Of a DNA stretch of 64,000 bases, positions 43,002-44,170 are shown piece after piece. The translations under genes were made by a program, and so were the position numbers. Each line of letters starts with the position of its first letter. The stretch's first letter is position 1. This stretch comes from Escherichia coli (lineage in GTDB: Bacteria > Pseudomonadota > Gammaproteobacteria > Enterobacterales > Enterobacteriaceae), in NCBI RefSeq assembly GCF_048403405.1, contig NZ_CP183135.1; one strand, 5' to 3'. Below the pieces are notes generated by a model. It made no database searches. It was not told where the DNA came from and was given only the letters and a program-made list of their open reading frames with translations.

Positions 43002-44170
43002 CTAATTTGAGGGTTTCGAGCCCTGAAGAGGCATATCCCATCGTTTTACAGATATTGCAGAAATTGGTACGCAATATGCTGCTTCTTCCTGGAGTTTCTT
43101 CCTGGTATTTGTATCGAAGTCTACATTAAGCAGGTCGAACTTCCAGCTTTCCCGATAAAACCTTATAATATCCTTGGGACAAAGGAGAATAAACTGGTTT
43201 GTCGTAAACATAGAAACAGCCTGCACAGAGTAATATTCCCCCGGTTTTATATTTTTTTTACCCCATACTGCATTGGAAAAAAACTCCTCCGGATATTCAC
43301 TTGTTTTAATAATGTAGCTATGTATTTTGAAGTCACTTATACCTGAGAGCTTAATAACTGAATGGGTAAAAATTACTGGTAATACGGTTATTTGAGTCGA
43401 TATAACTAATAATATCATCAAGGATGCGACAAATGCAGAACTAATTCTTTTAGAAAGTTTATGCTGTGGATTCATTTTTAGATAAATGAGGCCGGGAAGT
43501 ATTGTCAGAATAAAAATAAAATATGACATGAAAGCCAGTTCAGCTATCACTTTGAAATTAATACTCTTATCTGAAGTTTCAATATTCCTAAAAACCATCT
43601 CCAGTGGAATTACCTGAAGATGCACCAGTAAAGCAATAGACAACGGAATGATAAGATAGATCTGAACACGTCTCAACAGTTTCATTCTATTATTTTTAAA
43701 CGATAAGTCATATTCAAGATACCTCGTGTTTATTATGGCTGAAATAACAACTATTAGTACTCCTATACTTAAAATAGATAACCAGCCAGAGTTATCTTTA
43801 ACACTCTGGTCAAAATCAAATGCACAGTATAACACGTATATAAAGGCCATGGGGAAGAGGCCAGATAACATCATTACAGATAAAAAATTACCCTGAATCT
43901 TATTGTAAGCAGGAAGATTTTTTATATCATAAGGAATAACTATTGGTATAAAAAAAGATGTTATAAAAAAATAAAAATGATCATAATCAATGATAGAATA
44001 GTTGTACAACAAACCAATACCAAGATGCTTTTAATATTCATCACATCAAAGAAAATATCAAGTCGATCCAGACGACTGAAATATCCCCAGAGAACTATCA
44101 ACGCAATCCCTGATATAATACTTGATGGTGTTAATACTGAAACTATTAGCGTCTTCCACTTCTGATTCAT
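43002..44170 (-). CDS. AT-rich multi-pass membrane protein of unknown function, possibly frameshifted (two overlapping ORFs 43961-44170 and 43002-44012)
   Basis: Highly hydrophobic N-terminal two-thirds, about 110-aa hydrophilic C-terminus; the two ORFs overlap near poly-A runs at 43950-43975. Confidence 0.4.

Follow-up and report, generated by a model that had tools for sequence, protein, structure and literature searches.

Within the 64,000-nucleotide stretch of Escherichia coli DNA analyzed here (the window), a single membrane protein appears to be divided between two open reading frames (ORFs) on the minus strand, which meet beside runs of adenine. An earlier note, made from the letters alone, had offered three explanations for this arrangement: the frameshift is real and inactivates the gene, the tract is prone to slippage, or a homopolymer was miscounted in sequencing. 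The question raised by the locus is which of these applies, and whether the break is simply damage or a means of regulating the gene. The features concerned are the following:

43002..44170 (-): the frameshifted gene, for an uncharacterized 389-aa polytopic membrane protein whose intact form is WP_001072358.1
43961..44170 (-): the N-terminal fragment ORF, 69 aa, ending ...IFIFL* at a new TAA
43002..44012 (-): the downstream frame, which carries residues 68-389 of the ancestral protein
43965..43971 (-): the lesion, A7 on the plus strand and T7 on the coding strand, versus A8/T8 in intact relatives
43964..43971 (-): a candidate slippery heptamer, U_UUU_UUA, in the T7 mRNA, directly followed by UAA
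43950..43956 (-): a second run, plus A7 and coding T7, at gene positions 216-222, of normal length in the window

A one-base contraction in a conserved IncF gene

Both ORFs were found in different frames of the minus strand, at the coordinates given in the earlier note. The upstream ORF (69 aa) begins with ATG and has an AGGAAG Shine-Dalgarno sequence 7 nt 5' of this codon, and the downstream, mechanically called ORF (336 aa) begins with TTG, without an evident ribosome-binding site; the two overlap by 52 nt. The adenine runs described for 43950-43975 are located correctly but had been given as A7-A8, and their actual lengths are A7, A7 and A5, the plus strand at 43940-43990 reading ...TAT-A7(43950-43956)-GATGTTAT-A7(43965-43971)-T-A5(43973-43977)... 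A chance overlap of unrelated ORFs is ruled out, as the two halves are each 100% matches to a single conserved protein.

Alignment of the window to the intact gene (NZ_CP032425, NZ_LR130563) contains one gap and no mismatches across 1,370 nt, the coding strand being T5-A-T8-ATAACATC-T7 in the intact form and T5-A-T7-ATAACATC-T7 here. The affected T8 run occupies gene positions 200-207 (codons Ile66-Phe67-Phe68), and the loss of one base brings a TAA into frame after codon 69. When one A was added in silico at 43965-43971 (A7 to A8), a single 389-aa ORF identical to WP_001072358.1 was obtained, so a change of one base does restore an ORF of the roughly 390 aa that the earlier note had anticipated. 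Its suggestion of comparing homopolymer length with homologues likewise bore fruit, with A7 at 43965-43971 in the window and A8 in intact relatives. The first of the three explanations, a real inactivating frameshift, is favored, the contraction being most likely both real and inherited.

Megablast of 42900-44300 against PLSDB matched 1,190 plasmids, nearly all of them IncF plasmids from E. coli, and most of the matched stretches have one extra base and hold a single annotated 1,170-bp CDS for WP_001072358.1 (389 aa, 'hypothetical protein'). WP_001072355.1, a second IncF allele, is present on 374 plasmids (92% DNA identity) and also encodes 389 aa. The intact ORF appears to be a real gene under purifying selection, because the two IncF alleles give a dN/dS of 0.29 and there are invariant columns across homologues (26 columns across 17 homologues, with identity down to 25%). 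Conservation of the intact 389-aa ORF extends across Enterobacterales at 89% down to 25% identity; homologues at 25-69% identity, from Lelliottia, Enterobacter, Vibrio, Xenorhabdus and the E. coli chromosome, are alignable over their full length, with invariant residues to either side of the break (W28, R36-L37-D38, P176, G277-x-S279-D280, H284, C331, C367). Homologues stand alone in mobile-element settings, i.e. next to plasmid tyrosine recombinases, at the end of the tra cluster of an integrative and conjugative element (ICE), or within a chromosomal island, and no partner gene is conserved around the distant homologues, whose surroundings are those of mobile elements (integrases, tra genes, IS elements). 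The block of RepFIB, int and membrane protein gene was also encountered on multi-megabase chromosome records (NZ_CM132303.1, NZ_CP032204.1, NZ_CP031653.1; loci L034, L035, L037, L039, L041), which suggests integrated IncF segments or assembly joins.

The label of membrane protein attached to this gene in the earlier note agrees with hydropathy and with an AlphaFold2 model (17-sequence alignment, pLDDT 71.5, pTM 0.60), in which about eight membrane helices are predicted within residues 1-275, followed by a C-terminal globular alpha/beta domain at residues 280-380. The break is predicted to lie in helix two or three, so that the 69-aa fragment would retain at most two helices. Searches of family models (Pfam, NCBIfam, PADLOC, PHROGs) returned no match, Pfam giving only DUF6338 at E = 1; a PDB sequence-profile search with the 389-aa protein gave no match, Foldseek of the model against the PDB yielded noise alone (E > 0.1, TM < 0.33), and a literature search by protein accession found no paper. 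Foldseek against AFDB50 produced 101 matches at E <= 0.001; among the 50 listed, which are gammaproteobacterial and 162-482 aa long (mostly about 370-420), all but a few are labeled uncharacterized. The intact product is a full-length member of an uncharacterized gammaproteobacterial family of 380-415 aa (UniProt C8CGL0, A0AAP4FTC5, A0A2G0QDC8), with which it shares the N-terminal multi-helix membrane domain, the C-terminal alpha/beta domain, a GISDF..H.Y motif and two Cys; the family is without a Pfam, NCBIfam, PADLOC or PHROG model, a solved structure or a known function.

Mutation or assembly error

The stretch from 39000 to 57000 of the window is 100% identical to pKP389-2 (strain CRE389) and to the plasmids of strains 774 and 605, all from human isolates, and the annotation of pKP389-2 gives Taiwan as its origin. 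Judged by sequence identity, the window falls within a Taiwanese lineage of plasmids from carbapenem-resistant E. coli. Its first 47.5 kb mostly match pKP389-2 at 100%, with the exception of about 1.3 kb at 26346-27671, which is present in the window and absent from pKP389-2; this rules out exact identity with that plasmid, and an insertion sequence probably accounts for the difference between the two sister plasmids. Each of the sister plasmids 613, 572 and 571 has T7, and across 18 kb a G5/G6 run or a single SNP is all that distinguishes them from the window. The plasmid pUM146, which matched a 1,401-nt query at 100% and has the same lesion, was rejected as the plasmid of the window, the int allele and backbone differing from those of the pUTI89 type (NZ_LR130563 was the pUTI89-like reference in the backbone comparison). 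Two further observations concern the surrounding DNA. An orphan 90-aa PapB-family gene ('adhesin biosynthesis transcription regulatory') at 41883-42155 (+) is located in the same AT-rich block (~31% GC), with no adjoining fimbrial operon, and IS3/IS66 remnants lie between it and the frameshifted gene. At 25860, both the window and p675SK2_B have A6, where NZ_LR130563 has A7 and no CDS is annotated at that position.

It is conceivable, if unlikely, that the plasmid truly carries A8 with an intact gene and that A7 is a basecalling under-count. Loss of one base from an 8-base run is the classic error mode of long-read sequencing and pyrosequencing, and another homopolymer, 3.8 kb away, has likewise lost one base (G6 to G5, 40153-40157) and differs in length among near-identical sisters. 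This run, in the minus-strand gene 38671..40640, is G5 in CRE389, 571, 774 and 605 and G6 in the sister plasmids 613 and 572 as well as in relatives; the resulting shift divides a TonB-dependent receptor gene of the hemoglobin/transferrin/lactoferrin family between two ORFs (454 and 168 aa), and in pKP389-2 the receptor gene was flagged 'frameshifted' by PGAP. Many of the long T7 contigs (for instance L014-L016 and L018-L021) are visibly noisy, with broken rep and int genes. In addition, p675SK2_B (NZ_CP027703.1) differs from 27672-58921 of the window, 31 kb, by homopolymer indels alone, i.e. seven indels and no substitutions, at C5, C6, G6, A7, A8, C6 and C8, a pattern that looks like uncorrected long-read error. 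One of these indels is a T7 to T6 change at the neighboring run of the frameshifted gene (gene position 216), a contraction also seen in 6 contigs elsewhere.

Against an under-count stands the presence of T7 in every assembly of the lineage of the window (613, 571, 572, 605, 774, CRE389, ECKH-505, 2020N08-094), across several accession series. From at least eight T7 RefSeq assemblies, 613, 572 and 571 were compared with the window across 18 kb; these three are free of scattered homopolymer noise, and in T7 sister assemblies the other 8-base run of the gene is called at full length. A T7 91-mer occurs in 20 of 792 carriers among RefSeq complete genomes, and T7 was present in 18 of 767 in PLSDB. 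In a collection of 15 billion proteins, the T7-specific 69-aa product was found on 289 contigs in 450 index blocks (intact protein, 32,872 blocks), and in 368 of these 450 blocks the longest contig is 2-20 kb, a size typical of short-read assemblies. As the share of T7 is nearly equal in short and long contigs (1.6% among those of 2-20 kb, 1.4% among those of at least 50 kb), it is independent of sequencing technology. The opposite variant, T9 (+1), was found on 45 contigs in 69 blocks, among them assemblies of the Logan read archive whose flanking genes are clean. Frameshifted copies make up about 1-2%, and the gene is one in-frame ORF in ~97-98% of copies. The homopolymer-error explanation is therefore disfavored, given the at least eight RefSeq assemblies with T7 and its equal share in contigs of both size classes.

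Run length, switching and recoding

In order to compare the T8 run with other tracts of the same gene, every +1 and -1 variant of each homopolymer was made in silico and contigs with the exact truncated product were counted. The counts below reflect sampling and clonal descent, and are not numbers of mutation events:

T8 at gene position 200 (focal run): -1 on 289 contigs, +1 on 45
A8 at 913: -1 on 203 contigs, +1 on 38
T7 at 889: -1 on 28 contigs, +1 on 12
T7 at 216: -1 on 6 contigs, +1 on 1
A6 at 249: -1 on 10 contigs, +1 on 1
T6 at 285: -1 on 6 contigs, +1 on 2
G5 at 930: -1 on 7 contigs, +1 on 4

The two 8-base runs are alike in variant counts, which drop about tenfold in the shorter runs; this is the per-tract pattern that length-dependent replication slippage predicts, rather than that of a dedicated switch. 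When 40 loci were aligned over 3.9 kb, T7, T8 and T9 were each found on both window-like and pUTI89-like flank haplotypes; because each of these lengths occurs on two flank haplotypes, slippage must have recurred. The second explanation of the earlier note, a slippage-prone tract, is thus borne out as well, with -1 and +1 variants of the T8 run recurring on different haplotypes.

A more elaborate proposal would make on/off switches of the two 8-base runs, letting IncF plasmids shed or regain an envelope protein that is costly or is targeted by phage or host, perhaps with a trickle of full-length product from T7 copies through -1 slippage at U_UUU_UUA-UAA. We hold this to be very improbable; if true, it would represent a plasmid-borne contingency gene in E. 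coli.

It is extremely improbable, in our view, that the focal run alone is a phase-variable contingency locus, in which T8 is a selected switch (T8 on, T7 and T9 off) for a plasmid-encoded envelope protein. Such a switch would account for the occurrence of -1 as well as +1 states, with at least two flank haplotypes bearing each, for a change that is reversible in principle, and for a mobile element that encodes a membrane protein. The known contingency loci of Haemophilus, Neisseria, Campylobacter and Helicobacter are similar in having a mononucleotide run in the 5' part of an envelope-protein gene, with natural -1 and +1 length variants. The focal run differs from them in being short (8 A/T), unconserved among alleles and homologues, and no more variable than a control run. 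The control A8 near the 3' end, where a switch would be pointless, gives 203/38 versus 289/45, like background slippage; a contingency tract of 8 A/T would be a short one, and the off states amount to only ~1.5% of copies. The run is also interrupted in the sister allele, which encodes the same Ile-Phe-Phe as ATC TTT TTT (T6), and no run was found at the T8 site in Lelliottia, Xenorhabdus or chromosomal homologues. The T8 run is a by-product of a Phe-rich membrane helix encoded in a gene of 33% GC.

Least credible is recoding, by which T7 copies would still yield the full-length protein through -1 frameshifting or transcriptional slippage, making the gene a 'pseudo-pseudogene'. The zero frame of T7 reads AU[U UUU UUA] UAA, so that an X_XXY_YYZ heptamer stands in phase within the 69-aa ORF, and a -1 shift there would give ...IFIFLITSFF..., which differs from the wild-type protein by a single Phe-to-Leu change; low-level shifting that compensates for an indel has, moreover, been documented in other cases (PMC5009743). 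In phase and direction, the heptamer resembles those of established -1 frameshift sites (U_UUU_UUA of HIV-1 gag-pol, A_AAA_AAG of E. coli dnaX). It differs from these sites in having no downstream structure and no identified Shine-Dalgarno-like stimulator upstream, in being weak in E. coli, and in that the ancestral, dominant allele needs no frameshift. The 95 nt downstream of the heptamer fold no better than shuffled sequences (MFE -10.7 kcal/mol, z = -0.54), and the predicted hairpin begins ~30 nt past the heptamer, versus 5-9 nt for a stimulatory structure. U_UUU_UUA is a poor shifter in E. coli, much weaker than A_AAA_AAG, and where bacterial transcriptional slippage has been described, the runs were of 9 A or T (PMC5009743). 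With >97% of copies in frame, frameshifting is not a designed mode of expression, and the two-frame arrangement is not conserved among relatives. We consider the slippery heptamer incidental, because ~97-98% of copies are in frame and the downstream fold is unremarkable by its z score. In a promoter scan, sites were no more numerous than in shuffled sequence.

A probably slipped accessory gene and its meaning

We infer that a heritable contraction by replication slippage has inactivated an accessory IncF gene in this plasmid lineage, an account that the sequence comparisons make probable. The A8 to A7 change at 43965-43971 is most likely real and makes the gene an ordinary homopolymer frameshift pseudogene, not evidently regulated. 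It shares with the homopolymer-slippage frameshift pseudogenes of bacterial accessory genes a -1 change in a mononucleotide run, two overlapping ORFs, a full ORF restored by +1, and a variant frequency that rises sharply as the run lengthens (higher for 7 than for 6, and far higher for 8 than for 7). Nothing material sets it apart from these, except that RefSeq names the downstream remnant, WP_224169960.1, as an ordinary protein, unflagged. In such a course of events, the run would have arisen from AT-rich codons (ATT TTT TTT) for the I-F-F of a Phe-rich membrane helix, and would mutate at the rate expected of any 8-base A/T run. Replication slippage would then have removed one base from the T8 run of the coding strand (A8 to A7 on the plus strand), truncating the product after codon 69 and presumably leaving a pseudogene in the lineage. 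Frameshifted copies may persist at about 1-2% since the gene would be dispensable to the plasmid; that it is dispensable for plasmid maintenance is suggested by the frameshifted share itself, about 3% of copies of the window allele.

For annotation, the consequence is a correction. At the window gene, RefSeq/PGAP lists only a 290-aa or 282-aa remnant as a 'hypothetical protein' (WP_224169960.1 / WP_016245172.1), not flagged as frameshifted, and the PGAP starts differ (873-bp versus 849-bp CDS; 43002-43874) even though the gene sequences of the sister plasmids are identical there. The 290-aa form is listed in UniRef for 59 Enterobacterales taxa. Both the 290-aa and the 282-aa RefSeq/UniRef proteins are the tail of the frameshifted 389-aa gene. 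The per-tract counts provide a small natural calibration of slippage versus run length, and the gene itself belongs to a widespread family of uncharacterized membrane proteins carried on plasmids, ICEs and islands.
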